NCBI GenBank assembly: GCA_045577735.1
Contig: JAZNIY010000025.1
Location: forward strand, 48,964-112,963
DNA: 64,000 bases
Origin: Candidatus Stercoripulliclostridium sp.
GTDB taxonomy: Bacteria > Bacillota > Clostridia > Christensenellales > DTU072
Direction: 5' to 3'
The position numbers were made by a program, and so were the translations under genes. The notes under the pieces are model-generated. The model worked only from the letters and a program-made list of their open reading frames with translations, was not told where the DNA came from and ran no database searches. Shown piece by piece: positions 8,609 to 64,000 of the stretch. Position 1 is the first letter of the stretch. Each line of letters opens with the position of its first letter.

Positions 8609-8797
8609 ATCAATCTCCCGAGATATATTTACTTTATAACTATAACAAAAAGCGTGTGAGGTGTCAAGAGAGGGAAGGCGTGGCAAGAGAGCATTGTTAT
8701 CCCGGTAGAGTCACGGGTTCTATAAATATGCCCCAAAAGCATTGATTAAAAAGCAGTGTTGTAGTAATATAATTATATTAAACGAAGGAAAGCTTGC

Positions 8798-9306: not shown

Positions 9307-9513
9307 TTATGTCGGAGTGAACGAGGGCTTTCTAAGAGGTCTTAATAAAACTATCCATATCACACAACTCAAGCATAATAGAAGAATCGGGCCTGGATTT
9401 TCCCATTTTGATATCGCTCTATCGGTGATGTTCAGTCTCTCAGCCAACTGCATTTGTGTTAGATTTGCCTCTTTTCTACACTTAGCAAGGAACTTTCCAA
9501 TTTTTACTTGCAT
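9307..9513 (-). pseudogene. Truncated XRE-family HTH regulator fragment
   Basis: IGKFLAKCRKEANLTQMQLAERLNITDRAISKWEN then unrelated sequence; abuts a pseudo-tRNA junction. Confidence 0.6.
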
Positions 9514-9521
9514 TCATTTTT

Positions 9522-9596
9522 TGGTGGAGTGGTAATCAACATAACCGAACACTTAAAAACTCGCACTAGTATATCCAATAGAGAAATTGGAATTTG
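9522..9596 (-). repeat. Cassette-unit tail (12-bp site, conserved spacer, GTGTTCG-N16-CTCCACCA)
   Basis: 52 bp (9546-9597) identical to 10453-10504; homologous to 12575-12624 and 62223-62272. Confidence 0.9.
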
Positions 9597-9597
9597 A

Positions 9598-10257
9598 TTA
9601 TCTCTTTTTATAAATTACAAGCTCGGGATTCTCTCCATTTTCTTCATAAGTACACACGAGAAGGAAATCCATGTTTGCAGCAATGCCAAAGCATCTGCCA
9701 CCGAATTCGCTTTCGAGCTGGCTACCGAGATAGGTTTGCTTATCGTCAAGGAATTTTACCTTTTCTCCATTAGGTAGAGTGTATTCCATATTGATAAATT
9801 CACCCGACAGCACGTTTAATTGTTCCACCTTGGGTAATCCTTCGATATGTAAAAGCGTATTAAATTCGTTAATCAGCTGTTGTTTGAATTCTTCGAGTTT
9901 TTCTTTTCCACCAATTTCAGCGTATCGCTTCCAAATATCAAGGGTGTATTCGCCGTCTGCATAGCACCATTTGCAGTATTCTTCGTTGAAATGACCGTCT
10001 TTCTCACGGCTAAGATTACAATCATCAATAGGCATACCACAGCATTCGCAAATAAGCTCTCTCGGAGAACCGAGGAGGGTGTTGATGGACACATCAAACA
10101 ATTTAGAAAGGAGCTTGAGTGTATCTATATTAGGTATCGTTTCGCCCGTTTCCCACCGAGACACAGCCTGTCTTGTCACAAATAGTTTTTCTGCGAGTTC
10201 CTCTTGAGAGAGTCCTTTTTTCGTTCTTAATTCGTAGATTATATCTTTCGTTTCCAC
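9598..10257 (-). CDS. XRE-family HTH regulator with Zn-ribbon and C-terminal sensor-like domain (cargo)
   Basis: LSQEELAEKLFVTRQAVSRWETG; CECCGMP...YCKWC; palindrome AGCAAC-N5-GTTGCT at 10316-10332 is a candidate operator. Confidence 0.8.
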   Translation of the reverse strand: METKDIIYELRTKKGLSQEELAEKLFVTRQAVSRWETGETIPNIDTLKLLSKLFDVSINTLLGSPRELICECCGMPIDDCNLSREKDGHFNEEYCKWCYADGEYTLDIWKRYAEIGGKEKLEEFKQQLINEFNTLLHIEGLPKVEQLNVLSGEFINMEYTLPNGEKVKFLDDKQTYLGSQLESEFGGRCFGIAANMDFLLVCTYEENGENPELVIYKKR

Positions 10258-10428
10258 AAAATCACCACCTTAGTTAGTTGTGATTATATTATACCAATGG
10301 CGATCAGCATTGACAAGCAACTGTCTGTTGCTCTTTGGTTATCAAATACTTATTTATCTCAACTATTAATTAAAAATATACAACATAAGAACACAAAATT
10401 CAATAACCATAACGTGTGCTTTTCTTTT

Positions 10429-10503
10429 TGGTGGAGTAGTGGTAGGCATAATCGAACACTTAAAAACTCGCACTAGTATATCCAATAGAGAAATTGGAAT
10501 TTG
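10429..10503 (-). repeat. Cassette-unit tail, second copy
   Basis: Same 75-bp layout as 9522-9596. Confidence 0.9.
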
Positions 10504-10507
10504 AAAA

Positions 10508-10870
10508 TCATATTGGTGTTCCTACTTCTATTAAATTACCATCCAAATCGTAGAAGCGGATTACTCGTTGTCCCCAACTATGTGTCATAAGATGATTTAC
10601 ATATTCAATTTTTGGGTATAGTCTTTCTAGTTTTTCAATAAAAGATTCGATATCTTGCTCTTCAAAATACAATTCGCAAGAATTGCTTTTTGGAATAATA
10701 TCTTTATTTAAAAACGATCTCCATATTTTCTCATCTTGAAGAACTAAACCATCTGTTAAAATCATATTGCCATCGTTGTCAAGAACTAAGTCTATACCAA
10801 ATAATTTGTGATAGAATTCTCTCGATTTCTCTATATCTTTAACTACAATCAAAATGTTCTTCAGTTTCAT
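10508..10870 (-). CDS. VOC/glyoxalase-bleomycin resistance family protein (cargo)
   Basis: LIVVKDIEKSREFY...WGQRVIRFYDLDGNLIEV; start ATG 10870 with GGAG. Confidence 0.85.
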   Translation of the reverse strand: MKLKNILIVVKDIEKSREFYHKLFGIDLVLDNDGNMILTDGLVLQDEKIWRSFLNKDIIPKSNSCELYFEEQDIESFIEKLERLYPKIEYVNHLMTHSWGQRVIRFYDLDGNLIEVGTPI

Positions 10871-11055
10871 ATTGTATCTCCAAAAAATTCTTATTTGACT
10901 AATAACTTCAAATTTAATATACCACACAAAAATAAAGAAGGCAATAGCCGTAATGTGTGTTGGCTTTGATATAATCGGTGTCGACAAGGGTGACGCGAAA
11001 CACTATCTCAAACTAAGTAATGATAAAATAAGAGTAAAGCGCTTGTAATACTTTT

Positions 11056-11295
11056 TAGTTGGTAAATATACTTGAACGCAATGCGTTCACTTTCGCCAGG
11101 TTTTTGCTTAGCAAAATGCCAAACTTGTTTTGGCTATAATGTGAGCAACGCGAACTATAATTTGAACGAAGTGAGTTACTCGCAAAAACTTGCGCACCCC
11201 GTTTGCTTTGCAAAAGGGGTAAGTGCTCGCCTTGTCTCCACCGCACACAAAAGAAAAAGACGAACTTTAAGTTCGTCTTTTCGTGTGTGGTGGAG
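11056..11295. repeat. Structured non-coding 'head' element, copy 1
   Basis: ~105-bp core near-identical to 13152-13257 and 63351-63457; several hairpins. Confidence 0.9.
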
Positions 11296-11462
11296 TGCCG
11301 ACAAACATAATCGAACACTTATATATGTGAGATTATCGTATCATATATTTACCCAATTCTCAATTTCTATTTTATATCATTTTTTTAAAGAATTAATTTG
11401 GGGAACTATGTCGTGTTTTTTTCGTTTAAATATGAGTGGCGGAGGGCGTAACAAGAAACTAT

Positions 11463-12227
11463 TTATTTTTTGTTTTGTTTTACTAGCTTTTTCCCAATCT
11501 TTTGAAACACTTCTTTTGTTACCTTAACATCCGAAATCATTAGAATTAACACTATAACAATAATACCAAAGGCTGTTAAAGTTATATATTGGGATACACC
11601 AGGTATTATAAAAGGCAAGCCACTCCTATAAAACATATAATCTCCGGTTAATCCAAGAACATGTATATCAATGACTTCACAATTTATAAAATGCAAAAGT
11701 GTGCCGAGGAAGGTCCATCCGAAGTCCTTAATATTCGGCACATATTTTTTACTTGCATACTCAAACACGGGAATAAAGAGTAATCCAGTATGTTGAAGCA
11801 CACTCTTGAGAATAGGAAACACAAAAACAGTATTGCAGAAAATTCCATCTGGCATGGCGAACGTCAATATCCCACCAATAAATCCAAACAAATAAAACAT
11901 TTTTTTCATAATCTTGTTATCAAGCAATGCCGCAATTGGCACTAGGATGCCATTAAGATTACAAGGATACATTGGATATAAATCTATCCATGGGGATTTG
12001 TTGACGGTTATGTATATAATTCGCCAAAAAACCTCAAAAGCAAATTGGAACCCTGCTATGCCAATAAGTATTTTCCTTTTGGTTACGTCAGATATTTTTT
12101 TATTTGCTCCAAGTATTGCACAAATGCTCACACCGACTAAAACGACCACAATCACCACCAAATGCATTGTTTGGTATTCATATGCCCCGGGTGTGCCCAT
12201 ATTGCCATTAAACCAATTTTTGATCAT
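11463..12227 (-). CDS. YwaF/TMEM164-like integral membrane protein (cargo)
   Basis: Multi-TM; LYPMYPCNL, QHTGL, DYMF motifs; AAGGAGG RBS. Confidence 0.65.
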   Translation of the reverse strand: MIKNWFNGNMGTPGAYEYQTMHLVVIVVVLVGVSICAILGANKKISDVTKRKILIGIAGFQFAFEVFWRIIYITVNKSPWIDLYPMYPCNLNGILVPIAALLDNKIMKKMFYLFGFIGGILTFAMPDGIFCNTVFVFPILKSVLQHTGLLFIPVFEYASKKYVPNIKDFGWTFLGTLLHFINCEVIDIHVLGLTGDYMFYRSGLPFIIPGVSQYITLTAFGIIVIVLILMISDVKVTKEVFQKIGKKLVKQNKK

Positions 12228-12574
12228 ATTGATAATCCTCCTTGTCTTTAATGTATCTTAATAAATATAATATCACATTTTTATTGCAAAACAAACAATT
12301 TTATTTTCTAGTATTAAGTTAGAATAATAGTTATTTAGTGTCGATGGAACTTTTAGGAGAGATTTAGACTTAAGGAATATTAAAAATGAGCATTCACATT
12401 TATCGTCTATTTAATAGTATGGATATATTCCTAAATAAGCCAACAAGAATGAGTCCCGATGAAAATGGTTTTTTGTTGCCTTTTGGCATAAGAGCCTAAC
12501 ACACCCCATTCTCATATCAAGAGGCTTTCGTGGCATAAAACGTTGTTGCTACTTTTGAAAAATATCCAATAAAA

Positions 12575-12624
12575 CGAACACTTAAAATACGCACCAATAT
12601 ACCAAATATATAAATTGGAATTTG
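12575..12624 (-). repeat. Cassette-unit tail, diverged copy lacking the CTCCACCA end
   Basis: CGAACACTTAAAATACGCACCAATATACC...AAATTGGAATTTG. Confidence 0.75.
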
Positions 12625-12635
12625 TAATTACGCTA

Positions 12636-12965
12636 TTATTGTTTGTTATTCTTTTCGATCGTAATACTTGATACAATAGCATATATGAGAGTAATGATAA
12701 CAACCGCTACACCCACGAAGGAAATCCAATATGCTTCAAGCAACACAGCGAGAGCGAGCAATAAAAAGACGATTCCAAACAGTAAAAAAACAATAGCCGA
12801 TTGGCGATAATATGGCTTTTTATTCATTTTCTCACGTTCTTGCTTCGATGCATAGATGTAAGCATTGTTAAAAAGAAACCCCTTTTCCATAAAGGATCTG
12901 ATACTCATGAAAAACAAAAAAACGGATACTGCAAAAAGAATACTTGCAATAATAATTTCTTTCAT
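12636..12965 (-). CDS. Small three-TM membrane protein, DUF3784-like (cargo)
   Basis: EKGFLFNNAYIYASKQEREKMNKKPYYRQS loop between TM helices; GAGGTG RBS. Confidence 0.65.
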   Translation of the reverse strand: MKEIIIASILFAVSVFLFFMSIRSFMEKGFLFNNAYIYASKQEREKMNKKPYYRQSAIVFLLFGIVFLLLALAVLLEAYWISFVGVAVVIITLIYAIVSSITIEKNNKQ

Positions 12966-13060
12966 TATCTGTCACCTCTACAAATTCTTATTTATCTATC
13001 AAATCTTTTTTAAATATACCATATAAGAACAAAAAACTCAATAACTATAATATAGGGACG

Positions 13061-13403
13061 GTGGACGATAACGGACCGCGAAAGACTGTCTCGCGTAATG
13101 TGAAATATGTAATTAAGTTTGCAACACGTAATAGTGGCAATTGGTGGAATATACTTGAACGCATCGCGTTCACTTTCGCCAGGTTTTTGCTTAGCAAAAT
13201 GCCAAACTTGTTTTGGCTATAATGTGAGCAACGCGAACTATAATTTGAACGGAGTGAATATAATTCAAATTCGCATTTTTTAGACTCACTTACGCTCGAA
13301 TTATAGTTACTCCGTAACATTATAATCAAATTCTTGCGAATTTGACGCTGTCTCCACCGCACACAAAAGAAAAAGACGAACTCTAAGTTCGTCTTTTCGT
13401 GTG
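13061..13403. repeat. Structured non-coding 'head' element, copy 2, directly abutting the tRNA 3' end copy
   Basis: Shares its left part with 63260-63457 and its terminal hairpin with 11230-11295. Confidence 0.9.
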
Positions 13404-13449
<46 letters not shown>

Positions 13450-13471
13450 ATTTTATAAAATAAAATAATGT

Positions 13472-14512: not shown

Positions 14513-14609
14513 AACGTACTCCTTTGCGCTTTGCGCGTACGCACGCTTGCGTGCGTGTCATACTAGATACTTAAGAAATATCTGACCGGCCGGAACCAGT
14601 CAAAAATTT

Positions 14610-15656
14610 CTAATTTTTTACCAATTTTTTGCTACTCTTCTCAAACTGCTTTTGGTACATTTCGCGGTCGTTATAGTAGCTATAACAAGCCGGAATAAAA
14701 AAGTACGTTTTCTCTTCTTTATCCGTAGTGTTAATTATCCTAACGTTTTGCGTGGCTTCCGTGTTTGCCTCAATATGGTACTCAATTTTGCGGAAACCAT
14801 ATAGACGCTCTGCTATAAATAGTTTAACCACGTGCAATACCTGGTTTAATTTGTTAAGTATTTCAAGACCATAAGCACGTCCAACGTGGCGTGCTTTCTC
14901 CAAGCGGAAGTTCTGTCCGACTACACGTCGCACAGATATGTCTACGTTGTTGTGGTCCTGTTCTGTTGCTAAAATATATCCGTCCCAAAAGTGTCGGTTT
15001 AGACGGAACGTCTCTTTTACTTTTTCCGGTGTCGTCTTGTAGCCCATCGCCTCGAGCAGCTCGCCAATTTCGTCAACGCAAAGTATCCAACCTTCCGGAA
15101 CGAGTTCTTCTTGTAATAGGTACTTCATAATGCCGGCGTTATCGTACGTGTACGACGTATGCCCTTTGAATGTTATCTTTATGTTGGATATAATAGGGAG
15201 TTTCTTCTCCTTGGATATTTTCAAAGCGTTATCGAATAGGCTAATGACTTGCATAGCCTTGTCTTTGCTTACTTGAGCGCCTTTCTTGAGTTTGGAACGA
15301 TACTTTACTATATCTCCATGACGTTCGTACAGGAATTGTGACATGCGGTATTTGGACCAAAAAACTTTGGTGTGAATAACCGCAAGAACGGTCATTATGA
15401 ACGTCTTACCGGATCCGGGTGGGCCCGATAGAATATTTACCCTCATGGATAATATACCAATACTCATTAGATAACTAATGTTTAGGTAAATTAGGTAACC
15501 AAGACGTACTGCTCCGTACACCCAAACCCATTGTAATACTTTGTTTTCGCTTGACGTAGCAATAATTATTGTTAAAAGTAGTATGCATATGTAGTATATG
15601 TACGTCTTTAACAGTGAGTGTTCGTAGTCAAAGCCGATAGGGGGCCTAGGTTTCAT
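14610..15656 (-). CDS. Zot/pI-like morphogenesis ATPase
   Basis: N-terminal TMs, Walker A GPPGSGKT, Walker B LCVDE, RH and ATEQ motifs typical of Zot/pI. Confidence 0.8.
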   Translation of the reverse strand: MKPRPPIGFDYEHSLLKTYIYYICILLLTIIIATSSENKVLQWVWVYGAVRLGYLIYLNISYLMSIGILSMRVNILSGPPGSGKTFIMTVLAVIHTKVFWSKYRMSQFLYERHGDIVKYRSKLKKGAQVSKDKAMQVISLFDNALKISKEKKLPIISNIKITFKGHTSYTYDNAGIMKYLLQEELVPEGWILCVDEIGELLEAMGYKTTPEKVKETFRLNRHFWDGYILATEQDHNNVDISVRRVVGQNFRLEKARHVGRAYGLEILNKLNQVLHVVKLFIAERLYGFRKIEYHIEANTEATQNVRIINTTDKEEKTYFFIPACYSYYNDREMYQKQFEKSSKKLVKN

Positions 15657-15862
15657 TTGAATATTCTCCTTTTACCACGAACGTTTTGGAACGTGCAAAT
15701 ACGGTAAATAGGACGTAGAAAGAAACCGAACACCATTACGCACGTGCAAAACATTGCCAGGAGACCGACAGCATCTCCGGTCTTCCATAGGTTTATAAAG
15801 TCTAAGTTCTCGCCTAAGCAGAACGTCCAAAATTCTTGGAAATAATATATCAATGGTTCCAT
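15653..15862 (-). CDS. Small single-TM phage protein (minor virion candidate)
   Basis: 69 aa, one TM, basic C-terminus, overlaps the ATPase start. Confidence 0.65.
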   Translation of the reverse strand: MEPLIYYFQEFWTFCLGENLDFINLWKTGDAVGLLAMFCTCVMVFGFFLRPIYRICTFQNVRGKRRIFK

Positions 15863-15871
15863 ATTTCTCCT

Positions 15872-16255
15872 TTATCTAGCGCCACCGGCGCCACCGCCAA
15901 AGCCATCTCCATCATATTCAAAGTCTTTTCCGTTGAAGAATTCGTGGATTTCTTCGAAGAAGTCTACTATTCCGTCGAATAAATCTTGTATGATTTCTCT
16001 ATATCCTTCTGTCAGTTGTTGTACAAATTGAACAAATGGGTTTTTGATAGTATTTTCTAACCATTCTTGTCCTGCTTTTATCAAGTCTGTGTATCGGTTT
16101 ATTTTTTCGTCTACTTCGTCTAGCATGTCATGCCCAATTTCGGCATACACGTGGTCATTTCTATATTCTTCCCACGTTGCATAACCACCGATTGTTATTA
16201 CACCGCATACGAAGAAACAAAATATACATAAAGCAATAATTTTTGTTTTTGTCAT
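15872..16255 (-). CDS. Phage membrane protein
   Basis: N-terminal TM, Gly-rich tail; coupled to upstream gene. Confidence 0.65.
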   Translation of the reverse strand: MTKTKIIALCIFCFFVCGVITIGGYATWEEYRNDHVYAEIGHDMLDEVDEKINRYTDLIKAGQEWLENTIKNPFVQFVQQLTEGYREIIQDLFDGIVDFFEEIHEFFNGKDFEYDGDGFGGGAGGAR

Positions 16256-17358
16256 TTTGAATACACCAACTTAATTATTATTCCTAGTACAATAACTCCA
16301 CCGATTATTCCTAATATCCCCCATAACGATATACCGGCTACTTCAAAGTCGAGTATCTTCATTATGAAATCAGTACTAGCACCTATTCCGGTAGCGGCTA
16401 TTTCGTTGATATTGGCGTCTACGTCAAAGCTACCTTTGTTGTATCCTTCAGCATAACCTTTGTCATAGCCTTCTTCTATACCGTCTTGTTTTCCTGTTTC
16501 GTAATAGTCTTCTTTAGCTGCATCATAACCATTATCGTATCCGTCTATTAATCCTTTTTGATAACCTATAGTTTCTCCTTGTTCCATGCCTTGAGTGTAT
16601 CCGTTTTCGTATCCAGCATCGTAGTTTAGGCCATTCTTTTTATAGAAATCGTATAATGGTTCTGCAGTATAACTTCCTTGTACTATAGGTGTGCCTGCAT
16701 AAACCTTGTAGAAGTTGTCATTGTCTATAGTGGGGGCTGCTGAAGCCCACTCTATATCACTTGTTAAAGTAAATAAATTACTTTGTTTGTAGTTAAGTCT
16801 AGTTATTGGACTAATCTTTAGCTTGAATTTTGTGTTGTCCGCTTGCATGTTGCTTGGGAAAGAGAATTTAATTTTATAATCTTGATTGAATTTATAGGCT
16901 ATATCATCTAGACTGCCACTTGTTGCGTTTCTATAGAAGAATATATGTTTAAAGTCTATTCCGTTTATAGTGTTTTGACTAAAATTAGTAAAGCTTGTAG
17001 ATAAGTTTGGGGCGTAAAGAGATATATTATCTGAGTTTGTGTATTCTTTGTCGGTAAACAATAGTATATCTTCAAATAGTATTAAATCTTCATCGTATAC
17101 TAGTGTAATTTTTACGTTTAACGTGGACTCATCGTATAATGAGTGATGAAAGGTACCTTGTCCCACACTATCTCCTGTACTATATACGAACAATGGCATG
17201 TAGTATAGTTGAATGTATGCGTTTTTGTATGTTATTTCTTCTTCGGCTTTTGCAAGTAACGTAGCACTAGACGGTAACCCGAATATATACGCTACCGTCA
17301 TACATACTAGTAAAATTATTATTAAGGTTATGCTAATAATTTTTGTTGATTTGCTCAT
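16252..17358 (-). CDS. pIII-like adsorption/minor coat protein candidate
   Basis: Signal-like N-terminus, beta-rich domain, G-xxx repeat stalk (YDAGYENGYTQG...), C-terminal TM. Confidence 0.6.
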   Translation of the reverse strand: MSKSTKIISITLIIILLVCMTVAYIFGLPSSATLLAKAEEEITYKNAYIQLYYMPLFVYSTGDSVGQGTFHHSLYDESTLNVKITLVYDEDLILFEDILLFTDKEYTNSDNISLYAPNLSTSFTNFSQNTINGIDFKHIFFYRNATSGSLDDIAYKFNQDYKIKFSFPSNMQADNTKFKLKISPITRLNYKQSNLFTLTSDIEWASAAPTIDNDNFYKVYAGTPIVQGSYTAEPLYDFYKKNGLNYDAGYENGYTQGMEQGETIGYQKGLIDGYDNGYDAAKEDYYETGKQDGIEEGYDKGYAEGYNKGSFDVDANINEIAATGIGASTDFIMKILDFEVAGISLWGILGIIGGVIVLGIIIKLVYSK

Positions 17359-17360
17359 AA

Positions 17361-18110
17361 TTAACCTACTCTTGCTAATAGATATTTAATTATTCCGGTT
17401 GCAATACCTAGACCTATCATTGAAAGGGCTACGATTGCTAAAACACTTAATCCGCCATTGCCATCTGTGACGATGGTTTCAAAAAAGTTAATGATTCCTT
17501 CTCCTATTCCGGTTAAGAACGTAGTAAAACCGCCGGTGACGTTGTTGATTATAGCGCCAGTTCCGAATTTTGCGCTCTTTAAGGTTATACTTTCTATTAT
17601 GAGATTTTCAAGAGTGGCTTCTTCGTTTAATGGCGTCATCATAATTAGGCAATTGTCTACGGAATAATTAGGTTCCGTTTCTAGGTCAGTAAATTGGCCT
17701 TTGTCTACTATTAATAATAGTCCCGTGTTGTTGTCTAATAGTAGTGCATTTTCAGCCATATCCCCTAAAGTTACTGCGCCATCTATTCCTATATTGTTGC
17801 CACTATTTCCTGCGAGTGCAGTGCGCTGTACAGTTGCTGTCTCACCTTTATACGTATAGGTGATTTCATATGTATTTCCTTCCACCAAGTTTAAGGTTGG
17901 AATATTTTGTAATGCAAATTCGCCCGAATTGAGTTGAAGTGTTACGGCTTCATCTAATAGATTCTCCGGAGCTGCGCTTGCGGTGATGTTATTGTTGTTT
18001 ATTATAGTAATGGCAAGGAAAGCCATTGCGATAATAAGTAAGCAACCTAAAATAATGTTACTTACCAAAAGCGCTTTATTTGTATTTTTTATATTTTCGT
18101 GATTTTTCAT
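17361..18110 (-). CDS. Exported domain fused to a coat-protein-like C-terminus
   Basis: Last ~66 aa align by eye with 18171-18371. Confidence 0.65.
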   Translation of the reverse strand: MKNHENIKNTNKALLVSNIILGCLLIIAMAFLAITIINNNNITASAAPENLLDEAVTLQLNSGEFALQNIPTLNLVEGNTYEITYTYKGETATVQRTALAGNSGNNIGIDGAVTLGDMAENALLLDNNTGLLLIVDKGQFTDLETEPNYSVDNCLIMMTPLNEEATLENLIIESITLKSAKFGTGAIINNVTGGFTTFLTGIGEGIINFFETIVTDGNGGLSVLAIVALSMIGLGIATGIIKYLLARVG

Positions 18111-18132
18111 AAATTCTCCATTTTAAGTTGTT

Positions 18133-18156
18133 GAGCCCCGACTTTCGCCGGGGCTT
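18133..18156 (-). terminator. GC-rich GAAA-loop hairpin after the putative major coat gene (stabiliser or partial terminator)
   Basis: GCCCCGGC-GAAA-GTCGGGGC on minus strand; no clear U-tract. Confidence 0.5.
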
Positions 18157-18170
18157 TAGGTTTTATGCGT

Positions 18171-18371
18171 TTATACTCTACGCATAAGTTTTTTAATCAT
18201 CCAAACTGCAAGTCCTAGACCTGTAAAAGTCAAGGCAAAAATACCTAGTGCGGTCATTTGACCTTCGCTGGTTTGTAGTAAAGTTTGGAAGAAATTAACG
18301 ATACCGCTACCAGTGCCTTCAAGAGTTCCTTGGAAACCATTGGTAATAGTGGTGATAATTTCAGTGCCCAT
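18171..18371 (-). CDS. Putative major coat protein
   Basis: 66 aa, amphipathic N-half, one TM, basic KKLMRRV end; very strong RBS AAGGAGGT. Confidence 0.7.
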   Translation of the reverse strand: MGTEIITTITNGFQGTLEGTGSGIVNFFQTLLQTSEGQMTALGIFALTFTGLGLAVWMIKKLMRRV

Positions 18372-18472
18372 TGACGTACCTCCTTATATATTAACGATTG
18401 GTAGGGGGTTTTTAATTCAACGTCGTTTAGGTTGAATGGCGGCACCCCACGTAAACCACTTTTTGGAACGGA

Positions 18473-18715
18473 CTATTTTTTACACTCACGTATCATTGTC
18501 TTGTAATCCTGGCATAGTTTAGTAAAATCTGCCATTATGTTCTGCAAGTCATTGCACGTGGAATGTATAAACTGTTTTTTCTCTTGGCTAACTACGATAC
18601 CGTATTTTACTTTGCCAAAGAACGTCGGCTTTGCAGCTCTAATTGTAAGAACGCTTTTGCCTATTGCTATTTCCTCTGATACGAGTTGACCTTTATATAT
18701 CTTTTTTGGGTTCAT
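18473..18715 (-). CDS. Phage hypothetical protein
   Basis: 80-aa ORF overlapping upstream gene, same orientation. Confidence 0.55.
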   Translation of the reverse strand: MNPKKIYKGQLVSEEIAIGKSVLTIRAAKPTFFGKVKYGIVVSQEKKQFIHSTCNDLQNIMADFTKLCQDYKTMIRECKK

Positions 18716-18902
18716 AATCTTTTAGTTTTCTTTTAATTTCTTGTATGCTTTTTTCGTGTTGTTCTAGATTACTTTGTATCTTTTTTATATTATCTTTAGC
18801 ACTAATCATATCATCTGTTAAAAACATTATTTTTATAGCAATTTTTGTTTCAAGGTCGCCTTTATCGTAAGCTTCTTTTATTAGTTTTAATATGTCTAAC
18901 AT
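18693..18902 (-). CDS. Phage hypothetical coiled-coil protein
   Basis: GGGAG RBS fits ATG 18902 (track start 18920). Confidence 0.5.
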   Translation of the reverse strand: MLDILKLIKEAYDKGDLETKIAIKIMFLTDDMISAKDNIKKIQSNLEQHEKSIQEIKRKLKDYEPKKDI

Positions 18903-18932
18903 TTCATTTTCTCCCATCAAAAAAAGGCAAAG

Positions 18933-19226
18933 TTATTGCCTTTTCATTCTCAATTTATAGTTATAAGAGGTCAATTCGATATCGATAGTATCACCAACGT
19001 TAACTTCAGGTTTGGCTTTGGTGAAGATATCGGTATTAAAAGGACGATAAGCGGTATTGATAGTACAGTACGTTCTCCAAAGAACGTCTGGTCCTAATTG
19101 CTTTTGAGAAGGCTCTTCAATAACGGTAGCAGTAAGAGTAACTACCGCTAGAGGTTTAAGGGAAGTCTTTTTCTCTTTAGGTGCATCTGCATCGGTAGGG
19201 AATGGTAAGTTGTTTTGTTCAGTCAT
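18933..19226 (-). CDS. Putative ssDNA-binding (pV-like) protein
   Basis: 97 aa beta-rich, VNVGDTIDIEL OB-like end, first gene of the leftward operon; AAGGAG RBS. Confidence 0.5.
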   Translation of the reverse strand: MTEQNNLPFPTDADAPKEKKTSLKPLAVVTLTATVIEEPSQKQLGPDVLWRTYCTINTAYRPFNTDIFTKAKPEVNVGDTIDIELTSYNYKLRMKRQ

Positions 19227-19543
19227 AGATATATCTCCTTTGCTAGTAACGCCAGCCGCGAAAGTGATAACGTTGGGAATAATTAGACTGTAAGTATTGC
19301 CGGTAACGAATGCAGGAGTGCATCGTCGGCAATACGTCTAATTGCCCCGTTAGGGACGGTAGGACTAATCTTGTGATAACGGTTGTTGTTTTGGGAGTTT
19401 GGCCGTCAACATTCCCCTCAAACTACCTAAGCTATTGCCACAAGCTTTTCCTCGCCGGAGTTGCTCGAGTGTGTCTTCCGTTATGCCAACCACTTTTCAA
19501 TCATTTTCTCAATTCCCACCGTCTAACGGTTGTCGGAGCCTGT

Positions 19544-19618
19544 TTCTAGGTTTCCTAGAATTATTATATTCTAAGTTTCTTAGAATTGTCAACAAGTTTT
19601 TTCTAATTTTGTTAGAAT
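19544..19618. promoter_or_regulatory. Divergent phage promoters overlapped by three TTCTA-N7-TAGAA operators
   Basis: Operators 19544-19560, 19569-19585, 19601-19617; minus-strand TTGACA-N18-TATAAT; plus-strand TGnTAGAAT. Confidence 0.8.
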
Positions 19619-19624
19619 AATTTT

Positions 19625-19828
19625 ATGTATGGTGTACGTATTAAGGAATTGAGAAAAGAAAAGGGTTTAACTCAAAAGCAATTAGCGGATATTTTAAAAG
19701 TTGATTTCCGTACGGTTTCTTTTTGGGAAAATGAAAAATATGAACCTAATATTCAACAGATAATTACTTTATGTAATTATTTCAACGTTTGTTCTGATTA
19801 TCTGATTGGTCGTAAAGATTGGTATTGA
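19625..19828 (+). CDS. XRE-family HTH repressor
   Basis: RIKELRKEKGLTQKQLADILKVDFRTVSFWENEKYEP. Confidence 0.9.
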   Translation: MYGVRIKELRKEKGLTQKQLADILKVDFRTVSFWENEKYEPNIQQIITLCNYFNVCSDYLIGRKDWY

Positions 19829-19837
19829 TTTTGATTT

Positions 19838-20617
19838 ATGTTATATCCTAGTGATATTCTGCTTATAGTTTTTGGTATTTTAATTGTTATAGCAATTTCT
19901 ATAACTATTTTTCTTATACGCAAAGATAATATATTACATAGACCATTTTCTAAAGGTGATTTTGGCGAAGGTATGGTTCGTGCTACTATGGACTTTACTT
20001 TATCAAAAGATGTTTATAAAATATTCAATAATGTAATGTTGTTTGATGGTGAGAAATCCATTCAAATAGACCATATCATAGCTTCCATATATGGAATATT
20101 CGTTGTGGAAACAAAGAATTATTCTGGTACTATATATGGTTATGAGAACTCGAAAAACTTTACGCAATATGTTGGAAGACAACGTAATGTGTTTTATAGT
20201 CCGATTAAACAAAACAAAAGCCATATTTATGCACTTAATAAAGTGGTAGGTTTGTATCCTTATACTTCCGTTATAATTTTTTTATCTCAAGCTAAGTTAA
20301 ATGTACATTCTACTACGTTTGTTGGCTCTCCGTTGAATGCCTCTCATTACATAAGAAGCTTTAACGACGTTAAGCTTACCGATGAACAGTTGAATGATTT
20401 TATAACCAAGTTAGAGAATAGTAACGTAAGCGATTTTATTAGCAATAGGGAACACGTTGCGAACGTCAATTACAACTTAGAGAAATACGAAACTGCACTT
20501 GAAACTATGACTTGTCCTTGGTGTGGCAGTAAACTTGTACAACGTAAAGGTAAATACGGTGAATTTTATGGTTGTAGCGCATACCCAAAGTGCAAGTACA
20601 TACACAAAGATAAGTAA
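19838..20617 (+). CDS. Membrane-anchored NERD-domain protein with topoisomerase-type C4 Zn finger
   Basis: QIDHII...IFVVETKNYSG, SPIKQN; CPWCG...FYGCSAYPKC. Confidence 0.85.
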   Translation: MLYPSDILLIVFGILIVIAISITIFLIRKDNILHRPFSKGDFGEGMVRATMDFTLSKDVYKIFNNVMLFDGEKSIQIDHIIASIYGIFVVETKNYSGTIYGYENSKNFTQYVGRQRNVFYSPIKQNKSHIYALNKVVGLYPYTSVIIFLSQAKLNVHSTTFVGSPLNASHYIRSFNDVKLTDEQLNDFITKLENSNVSDFISNREHVANVNYNLEKYETALETMTCPWCGSKLVQRKGKYGEFYGCSAYPKCKYIHKDK

Positions 20618-20874
20618 TAATCATCGAGCGTAGCGAAGCCCGGGAGGGCGCGAAGTGTAACGAAGCGATTAATAGCCGGTTGCTAGCAACCCTCCAACGA
20701 GTAGCTTATAAGCGTTAAGAACTTTAAGGGCCTTTCTGCACTCAGACATCAATTACCGGGAGACTATCATTCTTTCCAGCAAACCCACAAATTCAAACCT
20801 GAATTTGTGCAAAGAAATAACGAAAAGTAATATATAATAAAAAGTGGTTGTCGGAGCTCTGAAGAGGAGCACGT

Positions 20875-21873
20875 ATGAATAAAGAGAACGAGTTGCTGCA
20901 GTTACTGCAGGAACTCACGTTAGGCTTGACTAACGTAAAAGAAGAATTAAGCATCCTTCGCGCTGCGCAAGTAACGTATGATACCTCACTCACCTATGGT
21001 GAGTGGCTTTTAACCTGGTTAGAAACTTATAAAAAACCCAAAGTAAAGTACAATTATTATTTGAACCTAGTCGGCTACGTAAGAAATTACGTATTACCGA
21101 TGTTTGGATCCAAACCACTTGTAAGTATAAATTCCATGGAACTGCAGGAATTTTTGTTACGTATAAATATGCCGGCAACACGCACACAAGTGGCTGCAGT
21201 AATAAGCGCAAGTTTACGTAAGGCTTTCGAGCTGCGTCTTATTCCGTTCAACCCATACCTGGCTGTATGTTTTGAGCATTACGAGCAGCCGACGTTGGGA
21301 GCGCTCACCCACCGGCAATACGTTGACGTACTTAATGCAATTGACGTTCCGAAACGTTACGTGCAAACCTGGTTACTACTTGCTACCGGACTGCGACAGG
21401 GCGAGTGCCTTGCTCTCGAACGTCGCAACGTTGATTTGGAACGTAAAACGATAAGAGTGGAGAAGTCGCTCGAGCGCGGAACGTTGGAACTCGTAAAGCC
21501 CAAAACACGTGCCGGAGTGCGTACCGTTCCTATCGAGGAACCGCTGATAGGAATGCTAGCACCTTACCTAGATACGCCGGGGCGAATATTCCCGGAGAAT
21601 ACACCGGATAGTTTGTCCCGGTACTATCGCCGGTTATTTGCCCGGCTAAATCTTCCCTTTAGCGGACATATCTTCCGGCACACGTTTATAACAAATGCGT
21701 ACGAGCTCGAAATACCAGACTACGTAGTGCAACGTTGGTGCGGACATAGTAAACGTGCACAGGCAGACGTGTACCTAGCATTACGCAATGCCGGCGAGTT
21801 TGAAGAATCGGAATTGGTCCGTTATATGTTACGTCTAAAAAACCGAGCAGTGCCATCAATATTACGCACGTAA
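20875..21873 (+). CDS. int: Tyrosine recombinase/integrase
   Basis: TGLRQGE, KPKT, HIFRHT, CGH, DVY catalytic set; adjacent to att/tRNA. Confidence 0.92.
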   Translation: MNKENELLQLLQELTLGLTNVKEELSILRAAQVTYDTSLTYGEWLLTWLETYKKPKVKYNYYLNLVGYVRNYVLPMFGSKPLVSINSMELQEFLLRINMPATRTQVAAVISASLRKAFELRLIPFNPYLAVCFEHYEQPTLGALTHRQYVDVLNAIDVPKRYVQTWLLLATGLRQGECLALERRNVDLERKTIRVEKSLERGTLELVKPKTRAGVRTVPIEEPLIGMLAPYLDTPGRIFPENTPDSLSRYYRRLFARLNLPFSGHIFRHTFITNAYELEIPDYVVQRWCGHSKRAQADVYLALRNAGEFEESELVRYMLRLKNRAVPSILRT

Positions 21874-21912
21874 CACGCGCATTAAAGAGGTCAACACAAT
21901 TTATAGGTAAAG

Positions 21913-21948
21913 AAAAAGCCCATTTTCGTTAGAAAACAGGCTTTTTTG
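21913..21948. terminator. Bidirectional hairpin terminator between integrase and tRNA
   Basis: AAAAAGCC...GGCTTTTT. Confidence 0.6.
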
Positions 21949-21954
21949 ATTATT

Positions 21955-22030
<76 letters not shown>

Positions 22031-26695: not shown

Positions 26696-26860
26696 TCGGT
26701 TTTTGCCGTAGAAATGTATTTAGCGTGAAAAGGGAACTCGGTAGGGTTCCTTTTTCTATTGCTTAGGTGGGATAGTACTAAATATATCAAGATATATTTT
26801 AGTAACGGGAGTGGCTTTTTTCGTTTGACTTTAATCTTTTTGCTATGATATATTATTTAT

Positions 26861-26968
26861 GTGACCTGCGACTGACGGAATTTTATGGATAACCATAGTG
26901 GAGCAGATCATCTTGGAAGCCGACCGTCTGGGCGCACTATCTATATATAGATTAGTGCGCCCATTTTT
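26861..26968 (+). promoter_or_regulatory. ZMP/ZTP (pfl) riboswitch with terminator
   Basis: GCGACTGACGGA...GGAGCAG...GCCGACCGTCTGGGC followed by GGGCGCACTA...TAGTGCGCCC-T tract; upstream of the pur operon. Confidence 0.9.
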
Positions 26969-60194: not shown

Positions 60195-60250
60195 CCTCTT
60201 ACGTTTAGAAGGCGACCTATATGGGTCGCCTTTTTTTTATGTAAATAGGT

Positions 60251-61337: not shown

Positions 61338-62201
61338 TCAAATACAAGGCTTACTGACGACCTCGTTTTCCTTTCCGTCTTCTAATATTTCAATAGGAAC
61401 GATCGTGCGGAATAGCTCTATGTCATAGTTAGGAATGAAGATTTCAAATTGTTCCCCGTCTATCTCTAGAAGAACTTTGTACAAGCTTTTAATTATATAA
61501 CCGCCTTGATCGTTTTTTCTAAGTTTGTAGGGCTTGTATTTTTCGCTTTTCACACCTTCTTCCTTGTTCCAATTAGAAATACTCTTACGCTTTTTTTTCA
61601 TCGTAATGGACTTGAAGCACTCGCGTGGAATAGCAAAAACCGAATAGCAGTCTGCAAAACATATTTTGCCATTTTCTTCAAAAACGTGTAATGGCACGTT
61701 TTGATATGAATTTGACCATATTTCTTTTTCTACTCCATGGTCGTTTTCTTTAACCATTGGGAAAATGACGTCGACAAAAACGGAGGTATCCGGCACTTTT
61801 AATTCTAAAATAGCCTGGTCCGTCAATTCGTTTATAACATCTAATTGAGAATTTAAAAGGGGGTCTTGTTTTAATTTATATTTACGAATTCCAATATATG
61901 CAAACAAACCTAAACCGGCTAGCAAGCAAGCTCCACAAATATAGAATAAATAAGGAGCGTGATTATAGGACTCCGTTATGGTAGCGTCACTATCTAAAAT
62001 ACCCTCAAGTATGCAAGCGCCAATAAACGTAATAACGCTAGCTAATATGCTTATCCACGTGGGCAGAGCCTTTTTAAAAGAAGTAGCAACAACTTCCTTA
62101 CTATCGTCCAATTTGGATTGGCTCTCTTCACTTAAAGAGCGAATTTCAAAGCGAGTATACGGAGCAGTACCATCTTTTTTTACGCCAAATAGATTTTTCA
62201 T
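61338..62201 (-). CDS. Hypothetical two-TM membrane protein
   Basis: 287-aa ORF with GAGGT RBS. Confidence 0.6.
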   Translation of the reverse strand: MKNLFGVKKDGTAPYTRFEIRSLSEESQSKLDDSKEVVATSFKKALPTWISILASVITFIGACILEGILDSDATITESYNHAPYLFYICGACLLAGLGLFAYIGIRKYKLKQDPLLNSQLDVINELTDQAILELKVPDTSVFVDVIFPMVKENDHGVEKEIWSNSYQNVPLHVFEENGKICFADCYSVFAIPRECFKSITMKKKRKSISNWNKEEGVKSEKYKPYKLRKNDQGGYIIKSLYKVLLEIDGEQFEIFIPNYDIELFRTIVPIEILEDGKENEVVSKPCI

Positions 62202-62274
62202 AATATACCTCTATTTAAGTATCGAACGTTTAAGAATCGTACTAATATATCAAATTGCTAAATTAGAATATGTA

Positions 62275-62694
62275 TTATTCAATTGTGAAATTTTCTGTTT
62301 TCAAATCACAATAGTATCTTCCGCTTTCTGCGTTAAATCTTAAAACGCAATAGTCTGGATCAGTAACACCACCTTTATAAAACATCGTGTCTCCTTTGTG
62401 CCAAATCATATCTTTCGTCTTTTGGTCGGTTAACACTTCTATTTTCCCCTTTAACAAAACACCTGTGTACTTAATCAAGCCTTTATGATAGAAGTAAATA
62501 CTAGCATTGGGATTATTCATATACTGTTTAACTCTCATGGAAGAAGTATTTGTTGAAAAATAAAACTGGCGCAAGCCATTGACTTTTCTCGGTCTAAGCA
62601 TCGCTTTTACGTTTGGAAATCCTTCTTCGTCAACAGAACAGATAAAAGCGACTTTTTGCTTCTTGATAAATTTTGCAATTTTGTTGTTATCCAT
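62275..62694 (-). CDS. Pyridoxamine 5'-phosphate oxidase-like FMN-binding protein (cargo)
   Basis: SVDEEGFP, YFSTNTSS..V, NPNASIYF, DPDYCVLRF. Confidence 0.85.
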   Translation of the reverse strand: MDNNKIAKFIKKQKVAFICSVDEEGFPNVKAMLRPRKVNGLRQFYFSTNTSSMRVKQYMNNPNASIYFYHKGLIKYTGVLLKGKIEVLTDQKTKDMIWHKGDTMFYKGGVTDPDYCVLRFNAESGRYYCDLKTENFTIE

Positions 62695-62740
62695 AAACAC
62701 TCCTCACATAAATTCAAATTTGTTTATATGCTTGACAAAA

Positions 62741-63154
62741 TCAATTGTACTCAAACTCAAAATCACCATTTATACATTTGCCAGTTGATTCGAGAACAAC
62801 GTAGATTGTTTTTTCGTTATCGTATTTATCATTAAGTATGATAGTTTCATCGTAGGATTTTCCGCCTTTAATTGTACGGAGCAATTCTTTTTCACCGTCA
62901 ACACCAATATAAACTTTCATTTCGCCTTCATCAAGGGTTGCTTCAATATCAAGCGTATGCTCAGCTACACCATCTCTTTTCAATTTGAAATTATACGTTC
63001 CATTAAATGTATCAAATTCCATACTCGCTTCATCGCCATGACACGAAGTAATCAAAATGGTTGCAGAATAATTCTTGACATATCCGCTACAACCGCAGAG
63101 GGTGGCAAGCGTGAGAACTATAAGCAATGCAAAACAAACTTTTTTCATATCCAT
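62741..63154 (-). CDS. Hypothetical lipoprotein (cargo)
   Basis: Lipobox LCGC. Confidence 0.65.
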   Translation of the reverse strand: MDMKKVCFALLIVLTLATLCGCSGYVKNYSATILITSCHGDEASMEFDTFNGTYNFKLKRDGVAEHTLDIEATLDEGEMKVYIGVDGEKELLRTIKGGKSYDETIILNDKYDNEKTIYVVLESTGKCINGDFEFEYN

Positions 63155-63259
63155 TTTCCTTTGTCAAATTCTAATTTATCTATCAACTATTAAATATAAT
63201 ATACCACATAAGAATAAGGAAATCAATAGGCATAAGGCGGGCTTGTCTTGGTAGAAGCC

Positions 63260-63573
63260 GTGGACGATAACGGACCGCGAAAGGCGGTCTCGCACTATAT
63301 GAAACATGTAATTAAGTTTGTAACACGTAATAGTGGCAGTTGGTGGAATGTACTTGAACGCTAAAGCGTTCACTTTCGCCAGGTTTTTGCTTAGCAAAAT
63401 GCCAAACTTGTTTTGGCTATAATGTGAGCAACGCGAACTAAAATTTGAACGAAGTGAGATACTCGCAAAAACTTGCGCACCGCGATTGCTTTGCAATAGC
63501 GGTGAAGGTCCGTTCGTCCGTCAACAAAACAAAAAAGCAACCTAAATTGGTTGCTTTCGTTTTGTTGGTGGAG
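63260..63573. repeat. Structured non-coding 'head' element, copy 3
   Basis: Homologous to 13061-13257 and 11069-11220. Confidence 0.9.
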
Positions 63574-63601
63574 TGATGATAGATATAATCGAACACTATT
63601 T

Positions 63602-64000
63602 TTATGTATTATTTCTTTTTCTAATCATCTCACTTTCTCGATATTGTTCTGCTTCGGCAGTATTTATAAAATCAACAGTTTTGTCATGGTTTTCTTCTAC
63701 TACTTTTTTTATTTCATCTAAAGTAACTCTAAAAAACTCTTTTCTGCCATTTATTAAATTTAATTTTTTGTCAGCAAAAGCAGTATGTAGTGCATGTTCT
63801 AATTTCGGAGCATCATCTGAGAAAATCATAGCATGAATATCATATCGAAAAGGTACGGAGGCGCCACTTAATTCAGCGATACGGTCTTCGGGTTCTAATC
63901 TTCTAGTCATTCCTATTTTGTAAACATTTTCTCCAAAGGCGCCAATGTTGGAAATAATATATACATATCCAGCACGATGATTTGCGGCACGATAATCTAA
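63602..64000 (-). CDS. T5orf172/GIY-YIG-like (DUF4041-type) protein, C-terminal part (runs off window)
   Basis: AGYVYIISNIGAFGENVYKIGMTRRLEP.DR..EL..ASVPF; frame stays open to 64000. Confidence 0.85.
   Translation of the reverse strand, partial: LDYRAANHRAGYVYIISNIGAFGENVYKIGMTRRLEPEDRIAELSGASVPFRYDIHAMIFSDDAPKLEHALHTAFADKKLNLINGRKEFFRVTLDEIKKVVEENHDKTVDFINTAEAEQYRESEMIRKRNNT

Follow-up and report, generated by a model that had tools for sequence, protein, structure and literature searches.

How could an array of one- and two-gene cassettes grow at the end of a transfer RNA (tRNA) gene when no recombinase gene lies in the array or beside it? This question was raised by a unit at 62220-63596 (minus strand) of a 64-kb window, the whole stretch of DNA analysed here, which corresponded to C25:48964-112963 of the 1.96-Mb draft genome G000 (97.6% complete) from an uncultured ruminant-gut bacterium. 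A preliminary description of the window had named in this unit a head, a promoter, a lipoprotein gene and a PNPOx-like gene stacked between 12-bp sites, and a tail. All these features were present, at most 1 nt away from where they had been placed (the junction end had been put at 63597 and was measured at 63596). Here, we describe the anatomy of the unit, its junctions, its variation between genomes and the covarying fold of its head. We give about an even chance to the explanation that the array consists of recombinase-less mini-elements, which grew one after another from the 3' end of tRNA-Val(GAC) with a recombinase acting in trans.

The genus set comprised 22 genomes. G005 was a sister species of G000 (~80% identical across syntenic flanks) and G011 was another sister species. 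The tRNA genes were called by ARAGORN over the entire G000 genome, which gave a total of 48. Metagenome DNA runs (X1, X5 and X6) and one RNA run (X20) were examined as assembled contigs only, and the RNA-run contigs can prove neither absence nor strand.

The array and its tRNA-Val anchor

Read on the minus strand from 63596 to 62220, the unit consisted of a pseudo-tRNA tail, a terminator, the head, a promoter, a site, the lipoprotein-like open reading frame (ORF), a second site, the PNPOx-like ORF, a third site and a tail (Table 1). No promoter was predicted between the two ORFs. A GTGTTCG-N16-CTCCACCA junction (63596-63566) had been taken as the mark of a further unit, and a minus-strand tRNA ending in CCA had been predicted shortly beyond position 64000. 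The tRNA did exist and was identified by ARAGORN as tRNA-Val(GAC) at C25:116378-116453 (minus strand; window-equivalent 67415-67490). However, it was 3.4 kb past the window end, so that its closeness was not borne out. Between this gene and the 63596 junction there were two and a half heads, a 660-amino-acid (aa) ORF without a family match and a 381-aa DUF4041/T5orf172 ORF similar to PD-Lambda-1. Since heads and ORFs continued up to tRNA-Val, the junction indeed marked a further unit and the array was anchored at the tRNA gene. The array was co-oriented with tRNA-Val and started at it, and a first locus of the same system (9513-13449) started at a tRNA-Ala 3' fragment. Namely, direct repeats of the 3' end of the target gene bounded the units, starting at the intact gene (tRNA-Val, the tail copies, the pseudo-tails ending in ...CTCCACCA, and the tRNA-Ala fragment).

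The reported homology of the unit to the first locus was real, as head, promoter, tail and junction blocks all recurred at 9513-13449. The tail block (44 nt, one copy at 62232-62275), the junction block (43 nt, one copy at 63557-63599) and the promoter block (70 nt) were each present in four copies. The head blocks of the unit were 90-95% identical to 13061-13303 and 11080-11220. The head at 13061-13403 was chimeric, with a tRNA-Ala-type proximal end and a tRNA-Val-type distal end. Moreover, the tail, A-run, stem, loop, stem, T-run and anti-tail made up a single long near-perfect palindrome. The cargo of the first locus was a DUF3784 gene, a TMEM164-like gene, a glyoxalase-like gene and an HTH_3 plus zinc-ribbon gene. 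The only tRNA gene inside the window was tRNA-Ala(GGC) at 21955-22030.

Two other arrays were seen in G000. A third, long array lay behind tRNA-Ser(GCT) (C8:203000-228473), with heads at 228166-228331 and 224320-224478 and a Ser-type pseudo-tail (...CACTCCGCCA) at 207758. The tRNA-Gly(CCC) array (C6:51013-53681) had a related carrier, TGATATAAT...CGATAAATAAGAATTT, with the 3' site AAATTCCAATTTGTCGAAC, and the contig end fell inside this array.

Junctions between genomes

Comparison with the sister species showed where the units had been joined. In G005, tRNA-Val ended in ...GTCCACCA and was followed directly by ACAAAACG, the terminator and the head. In G000, the same ACAAAACG-terminator-head followed ...CACTCCACCA, with 3.8 kb of other units before it. 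Therefore, the 3.8 kb of tRNA-nearest units in G000 sat exactly between ...CCA and the terminator. In G011, a pseudo-tail ...CTCCACCA was joined to a head interior that in G000 continued as ...TTCCACCA followed by ACTGCC. The lipoprotein cassette of G005 began directly after ...CTCCACCA with AAACAAGCC, and its equivalent in G000 read ...CTACCA followed by AGACAAGCC. Thus, three independent between-genome junctions fell at the same 7-nt TCCACCA core. Cassettes also occupied different arrays: the glyoxalase cassette belonged to the tRNA-Ala array of G000 but to the tRNA-Val array of G005.

One contig of run X5 joined two head types directly, as G005 does (depth 14.4, 52 nt on the shorter side). 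Short joints within heads were present in run contigs as well (skips of 159-267 nt, sides of 23-41) and may stem from repeats or other organisms. At window 63600-66758, X1 had a depth of 0 and neither X5 nor X6 exceeded 3.3, against 4-16 in the flanks; these values were not used as evidence.

Different genes inside one carrier

The exact pattern AAATTNNAATTT occurred five times in the window (0.85 expected), a number reached by none of 100 shuffles, and all five copies were at cassette borders. These 12-bp sites were the inner ends of 17-21-bp inverted repeats around each swappable ORF module. The repeat was 21 nt long (86% complementary) for DUF3784, 19 nt for both the two-gene module (84%) and the helix-turn-helix gene (79%), and 17 nt (76%) for the glyoxalase gene. 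In three out of these four cassettes the flanking repeat was the longest inverted pair of the region, and around glyoxalase it was the fifth-longest.

It had been suggested that genes can be added inside one carrier, and the genus genomes supported this. The head-promoter-site carrier was fused directly after ...AATTTG to three unrelated ORFs, namely DUF3784 in G000, glyoxalase in G005 and a different ORF in G015. Homologues of the lipoprotein gene were found in five of the 22 genomes, and the PNPOx gene in G000 only. One-gene versions of the unit existed in G005 and G011, where the lipoprotein gene stood alone in the same carrier and the homology to G000 broke at 62709/62710. Thus, the two genes were not always linked. 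As a caveat, contigs of three same-species DNA runs spanned the internal site with both genes linked as in G000. Because the internal site reads like a 3' site joined to a 5' site, the stacking of the lipoprotein and PNPOx genes would be best explained, judging from the sequence, if two adjacent cassettes had lost the tail, head and promoter that separated them. The 12-bp sites may be recombinase targets or mere homology break points, and the inverted repeats could equally pair in the mRNA, the 5' untranslated region with the 3' untranslated region.

A metagenome scan for the promoter-plus-site pattern returned 18 loci, of which L119, L120, L124 and L127 were carrier-like by reading. The carriers L119 and L127 had a matching 3' site too, L120 and L124 stopped short of the 3' site, and L119 and L124 held different ORFs. 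Four loci (L118, L121, L125 and L126) were identical to each other and were not assigned as carriers. The other 10 were rejected as chance matches in AT-rich DNA.

Distribution and ends of the head

The head core was located directly 3' (within 400 nt) of 12 of the 48 tRNA genes of G000 and was co-oriented with the tRNA. The tRNA-Ala(GGC) head was displaced by a prophage between the tRNA and the head, and the tRNA-Arg(ACG) head had a variant core. The heads ranged from 200 to 330 nt in length and shared a common module order: the terminator, the complement of the last 12-18 nt of the tRNA, hairpins, CCTGGCGAAAG...CTTTCGCG, and a direct copy of the tail. The ends followed the neighbouring tRNA. 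Among 24 tRNA-adjacent heads from G000 and relatives, 20 had a distal (direct) copy that was closer to the tail of their own tRNA than to any non-cognate one, and for the proximal (mirror) copy the number was 17.

A covariance model built from 10 head copies had matches in 18 of the 22 genus genomes (none in the other four), with up to 27 in one genome (G015), often in tandem at ~200-230 nt spacing. In a 151-genome sample of the order, matches of this model were restricted to G000 and one same-genus genome; in the 129 other genomes of the order outside the genus the model did not find the head. Heads occurred in tandems of two to three copies and also in truncated form, and the tandem copy number differed between species. 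Many heads preceded ordinary genes rather than cassettes. In G005, a head was also present behind the transfer-messenger RNA (tmRNA) gene (L084, 93% alignment to the tmRNA 3' end of G000), whereas G000 had a plain terminator there.

The fold of the head covaried. For 33 proposed pairs in 42 aligned copies, 85.3% of the cells were paired, compared to 75.7% after shuffling and 32-44% with slid partners. Both sides had changed in 20 of the 33 pairs, and none of 500 shuffles attained the observed value. Compensated changes included GCGAAAG/CTTTCGC with GCAAAAG/CTTTTGC, as well as the triplets CGT/GCG, CAA/TTG and TGT/GCA. Rfam contained no family for the heads, either in the window at gathering scores or among the heads of G000, G001, G004, G005 and G015 at E-values up to 1-10. 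Only tRNA and one ZTP riboswitch passed. No family was matched by the heads, T-box, hammerhead, tmRNA and ROOL included, as their scores were 14-26 bits where cut-offs of 40-376 applied. In the RNA run X20, contigs with ~88-90% likeness were present on the lipoprotein-like and PNPOx-like ORFs and no contig was clearly on the head, although contigs cannot show absence.

Several variants of the head were seen. An optional insert of ~82 nt (~63386-63469; also 11080-11220 and 13163-13303) took the place of a small hairpin in nine of ~23 head copies, and an X5 contig lacked it at 63386-63469 (the joint skipped 82 nt). This insert may be a nested mini-insertion. In a second head subtype, CCTGACGAG or CCTGATGAG replaced CCTGGCGAAAG; it was found behind tRNA-Arg(ACG), tRNA-Gly(CCC) and tRNA-Thr(CGT) (G000 C27:83966-84250, L097 in G004 and L098 in G001). 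A hammerhead-like CUGAUGA...GAAA, sought by eye in these variant heads, was dropped, as there were no fitting stems and no Rfam match.

Search for a recombinase

The tyrosine recombinases of G000 were two Xer-like proteins and the integrase of a prophage, which has a 46-bp tRNA-Ala repeat of its own. The genome also encoded one reverse transcriptase, one IS200 TnpA and, at the end of a contig, one large serine recombinase. IS110 recombinases (DEDD-type, PF01548) had no match in G000 at 97.6% completeness. No intI-type recombinase was found beside the array, and the NCBIfam integron-integrase scores were far under the cut-off. In most of the 22 genus genomes, one conserved Xer-like gene was the only tyrosine recombinase found.

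The other Xer-like gene of G000 (C19:68056-68958) was rejected as the general enzyme, because it was present in only five of the 22 genomes and had no adjoining head in G005. In G000, it was divergent to an adjoining head remnant with a Ser-type pseudo-tail. This solitary gene (L105 6057-6959) showed 98% protein identity in G005 despite ~20% difference in genome DNA. Given this identity, its presence in five of the 22 genomes and its frequent position at contig ends, it was probably a small mobile unit. Another enzyme set aside was the large serine recombinase, which lies on C3 at a contig end in other DNA. An origin of the heads as palindrome-associated transposable elements derived from IS200/IS605 was also dismissed, as the flanks of the TnpA gene (C21:13578-13934) had no likeness to heads or tails by eye.

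Proposed mechanism and alternative explanations

In the model that we favour, a full unit in tRNA orientation would consist of a terminator, a head, a promoter, an inverted repeat, a ribosome-binding site (RBS) with one or more ORFs, the matching inverted repeat, and a tail ending in ...CTCCACCA. New units would enter as circles, whose pseudo-tail or tail copy would undergo site-specific recombination with ...TCCACCA, either at the end of the tRNA gene or at that of a unit already in place. Entry at the tRNA end would push older units outward, which is tandem accretion, and the recombinase would work in trans, not being encoded in the array. At a second level of exchange, ORFs would replace one another or be stacked where the inverted repeats have their inner edge, at the 12-bp AAATTNNAATTT site. 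The lipoprotein-PNPOx pair would then result from a loss of DNA that extended from the 3' site of one cassette to the 5' site of the following one. We infer the circular intermediates, the enzyme and the action of the head. The mobilising enzyme could be a host Xer-like protein or a transient phage or plasmid enzyme, or there could be none, with homologous recombination and template switching taking its place. If the mechanism is correct, this would be a known island-building process shrunk to single genes and combined with an undescribed head, which carries most of the interest.

Several observations weigh against growth by a recombinase in trans. No recombinase gene was found in or beside either array of G000 (PF00589 had three matches genome-wide, none there), and G015 held 27 head matches with a single tyrosine recombinase, the genus-conserved Xer-like gene. 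The head pattern had no match in a pattern scan of IMG/VR contigs. (The pseudo-tail pattern had six matches there, which were all within coding sequence and were therefore discarded as chance.) No circle or empty-site read was seen in the run data, which consist of contigs. The identity between pseudo-tails and tRNA tails was merely ~7-8 nt, and the junctions could therefore reflect short-homology recombination. Finally, a covarying fold is unlike a double-stranded attP site, so that plain accretion leaves the role of the head unexplained, and the folding strand was not singled out either (72 G-U versus 54 A-C cells, with both strands beating the shuffles at z -4.5 and -5.0).

Some of these points would be accounted for without any dedicated recombinase, an explanation that we regard as possible but rather doubtful. 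Heads, promoters and tails would then be portable homology. Once DNA had been taken up or transduced, cassettes would be exchanged by ordinary homologous recombination or by recombination at short homologies. Template switching at hairpins would produce the mirror and direct tail copies, with palindromes extended outward from the terminator and the closing stem of the head. The lack of a linked recombinase in G000 and G015, the chimeric head at 13061-13403, the long palindrome from the tail through the terminator to the anti-tail, and the tandem head copy number that differs between species are all consistent with it. However, it does not readily explain why three independent junctions share the 7-nt core or why ORF replacement breaks sharply at the 12-bp site and not at varied flank points; and one conserved core behind at least 12 different tRNAs needs some spreading route. 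The exchange of ORFs might also be separate from the tRNA-end junctions and be performed by the single Xer-type recombinase of the host on the inverted repeats, as in the dif modules of Acinetobacter. These modules, which are reported to lie between inverted Xer sites and to lack a recombinase, set a precedent. Although inverted 17-21-bp repeats bracket the ORFs and the Xer-like gene is the only tyrosine recombinase found in most genus genomes, we hold this to be very unlikely: no 11-6-11 Xer-type site was recognisable in the repeats by reading, and the motif that is conserved upstream of xer in the genus (TTTTACGAATAG...) had no convincing match to them.

The head itself allows two other explanations, both of which seem unlikely to us. 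It might mainly be a functional RNA tied to the tRNA, either a trailer RNA or a mimic of the acceptor/T-arm minihelix, with cassettes merely using the tRNA-proximal space. The conserved fold with its compensatory changes, a closing stem that mirrors the T-stem and the 3' strand of the acceptor, the constant co-orientation with the tRNA and the many heads in front of ordinary genes speak for such a role. On the other hand, a terminator hairpin separates the tRNA from the head, no head promoter was found, and the pairing changes had no strand bias. Moreover, the presence of the head varies at orthologous loci (the tmRNA gene of G005 versus G000, and four of the 22 genus genomes without heads), tandem and truncated copies occur, the 129 other genomes of the order gave no head, and X20 had no clear contig on it, within the limits of contigs. 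Alternatively, the head might be a programmable targeting module, whose constant folded core (RNA or single-stranded DNA) has ends that base-pair with a chosen tRNA or tmRNA tail and presents the site to a host recombinase or one acting in trans. In that case one element family could colonise any tRNA gene end, and the result would be an integron-like capture platform for single-gene cassettes with their own promoter.

Other features of the window

Table 1. Coordinates of the 62220-63596 unit, the adjoining gene and the first locus (window positions)
Feature	Position	Strand	Evidence
3' part of the 381-aa DUF4041/T5orf172 gene (PD-Lambda-1-type defence), last gene of the neighbouring unit	63602..64000	-	T5orf172 E 7e-19, DUF4041 E 9e-19, PD-Lambda-1 E 2.5e-148
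Pseudo-tRNA tail GTGTTCG-N16-CTCCACCA, closing the neighbouring unit; junction after ...CCA	63566..63596	-	4 copies
Terminator-like hairpin with A-run and T-run, first module of the unit	63522..63565 (stem 63558-63533)	-	identical sequence after tRNA-Val in G005
Whole head, ~290 nt, non-coding	63521-63260	-	folding and repeats
Head proximal strand ACGGACGAACGGAC, mirror (complementary) copy of the tRNA-Val tail	63508..63521	-	pairs with 63260-63275
Head core: hairpin P1, conserved closing stem CCTGGCGAAAG...CTTTCGCG, more hairpins	63276..63507	-	covariation, folding z -4.5 and -5.0
Head distal strand GTCCGTTATCGTCCAC, identical to the 16 nt of tRNA-Val that precede its final CA	63260..63275	-	sequence match
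Promoter-like site TTGATT-17-TATATT, sigma-70-like, with TG extension (extended -10)	63198..63226	-	inside the 70-nt repeat
Left inverted repeat of the ORF module, containing a 12-bp site	63165..63183	-	19 nt, 84% complementary to 62254-62272
12-bp site AAATTCTAATTT (reads AAATTAGAATTT on the minus strand)	63166-63177	-	pattern match
Lipoprotein-like ORF, signal peptide and Cys N-terminus (by eye)	62741..63154; likely start at the second ATG, 63148	-	no family match
Internal site between the two ORFs, containing AAATTCAAATTT at 62710-62721	62708..62722	-	15 nt, 87% complementary to 63165-63179
PNPOx-like ORF, 139 aa, RBS GAGGAG	62275..62694	-	Pfam PNPOx_N E 9e-16
Tail module, including the right inverted repeat 62254-62272	62232..62275	-	44-nt repeat, 4 copies
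AAATTAGAATAT, one-mismatch variant of the 12-bp site, inside the tail	62260-62271	-	pattern comparison
Putative truncated pseudo-tail start AAACGTTCGATA, running into the RBS of the gene that follows (61338-62201)	62220..62231	-	comparison with repeat copies
First locus of the same system	9513..13449	-	two heads, four cargo genes, three pseudo-tails; 46-nt tRNA-Ala 3' fragment (13404-13449) at the tRNA-side end

Next to the first locus, an 8.5-kb element at 13404-22030 was integrated in tRNA-Ala(GGC), with an exact 46-nt repeat at both ends (13404-13449 and 21955-22000). A Rep_1 protein (13472-14512), a P-loop ORF that weakly matched Zot-like proteins and a tyrosine integrase (20875-21873) gave it the likeness of a small filamentous or rolling-circle prophage. 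The element was missing in G005, where the head was located directly after tRNA-Ala. Just outside the first array, a 368-aa ORF (7580-8686, minus strand) had a TIR-like domain at its C-terminus, with E 1e-10 to 5e-6 for the SAVED_TIR and ThsB-like models of PADLOC. A ZMP/ZTP riboswitch was found at 26858-26940 on the plus strand (56.6 bits, gathering score 39). At ~60236-60246, contigs of three same-species DNA runs contained 1064-1075 additional bases without a counterpart in G000.

Comparison with known systems

For islands at tRNA genes, the usual explanation is an integrase that the incoming element brings along. The array showed the same pattern of growth at the scale of single genes and without a visible recombinase, with a defence gene (PD-Lambda-1-type) and small metabolic genes as cargo. 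According to PMC5704250, cis-mobilizable elements (CIMEs) without integration genes keep their att sites and stack by tandem accretion at tRNA 3' ends, with newcomers next to the gene. The array resembled them in having no integration genes, in being stacked at a tRNA 3' end and in its direct repeats of the tRNA tail. However, CIMEs are described there as decayed integrative and conjugative or integrative and mobilizable elements of several kb, for which the matching integrase is known, whereas the present units were 0.2-2 kb long and had one or two genes with their own promoter. Moreover, no matching integrase was found here in the 22 genus genomes, and a covarying head and ORF-bracketing inverted repeats were present instead.

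The ssrA islands of Dehalococcoides (McMurdie et al. 2011, PMC3146451) lie in tandem 3' of the tmRNA gene with a ~20-bp repeat of the 3' end of the gene at their borders, according to that paper. It also mentions islands without integration genes and a conserved non-gene motif just before each repeat, similar to GTGTTCGATTATG before ...CTCCACCA. In contrast, the Dehalococcoides islands were reported there to be ~10 kb long and 16 of the 31 to have a CcrB-like serine integrase module, whereas no unit here had an integrase, many different tRNAs were used, and the structured head had no counterpart in that account. The tycheposon islands of Prochlorococcus likewise had cargo at tRNA genes, partial tRNA copies in between, and adaptive and defence genes, as described in bioRxiv 10.1101/2020.12.28.424599. 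There, tycheposons are said to encode a tyrosine or serine recombinase of their own and, in many cases, genes for replication, neither of which was found in our units. The dif modules of Acinetobacter were the nearest precedent for recombinase-less gene modules that lie between inverted short sites and are shuffled between contexts. However, their sites are described as 28-bp XerC/XerD sites on plasmids, whereas the repeats here were AT-rich, 17-21 bp long, chromosomal, behind tRNA genes and without a recognisable Xer consensus.

The array works like an integron in several respects and yet fails the defining features of that family. Integrons collect single-gene cassettes next to a fixed site, and their attC sites (~57-141 bp) are imperfect palindromes that are conserved more in structure than in sequence and carry R'' and R' core sites. 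Similarly, the head was placed between mirror and direct copies of the target core, as attC is between R'' and R', and had bulged stem bases. On the other hand, there was no adjoining intI, and the junction elements were 200-330 nt long with ends that copied tRNA tails instead of a fixed core. Moreover, each carrier had its own promoter-like site, whereas integron cassettes are mostly promoterless and driven by the Pc promoter, and the counterpart of attI was a tRNA gene end, for which at least 12 tRNAs served. Another parallel is the bridge RNA of the IS110 family, a structured non-coding module with target-complementary segments and a constant core. The head was alike in its target-matching ends and constant core, but no DEDD/IS110 recombinase was present in G000, and the head as an RNA is only a candidate.

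Literature searches, which had the supplements of the cited papers outside their scope, brought up no account of a folded element with a mirror copy of a tRNA tail at one end and a direct copy at the other, nor of this cassette design. If the units are mobilised in trans, gut Clostridia would have in them a compact system of gene capture that compares with integrons. If base pairing is how the head picks its target, the head would be a natural integration module that can be retargeted. With at least 12 tRNA targets in one 2-Mb genome, the head family is a testable case. The array differs from tandem accretion, ssrA islands and tycheposons in its single-gene scale, its own promoters, its ORF-bracketing inverted repeats and its covarying head that tracks the tRNA.

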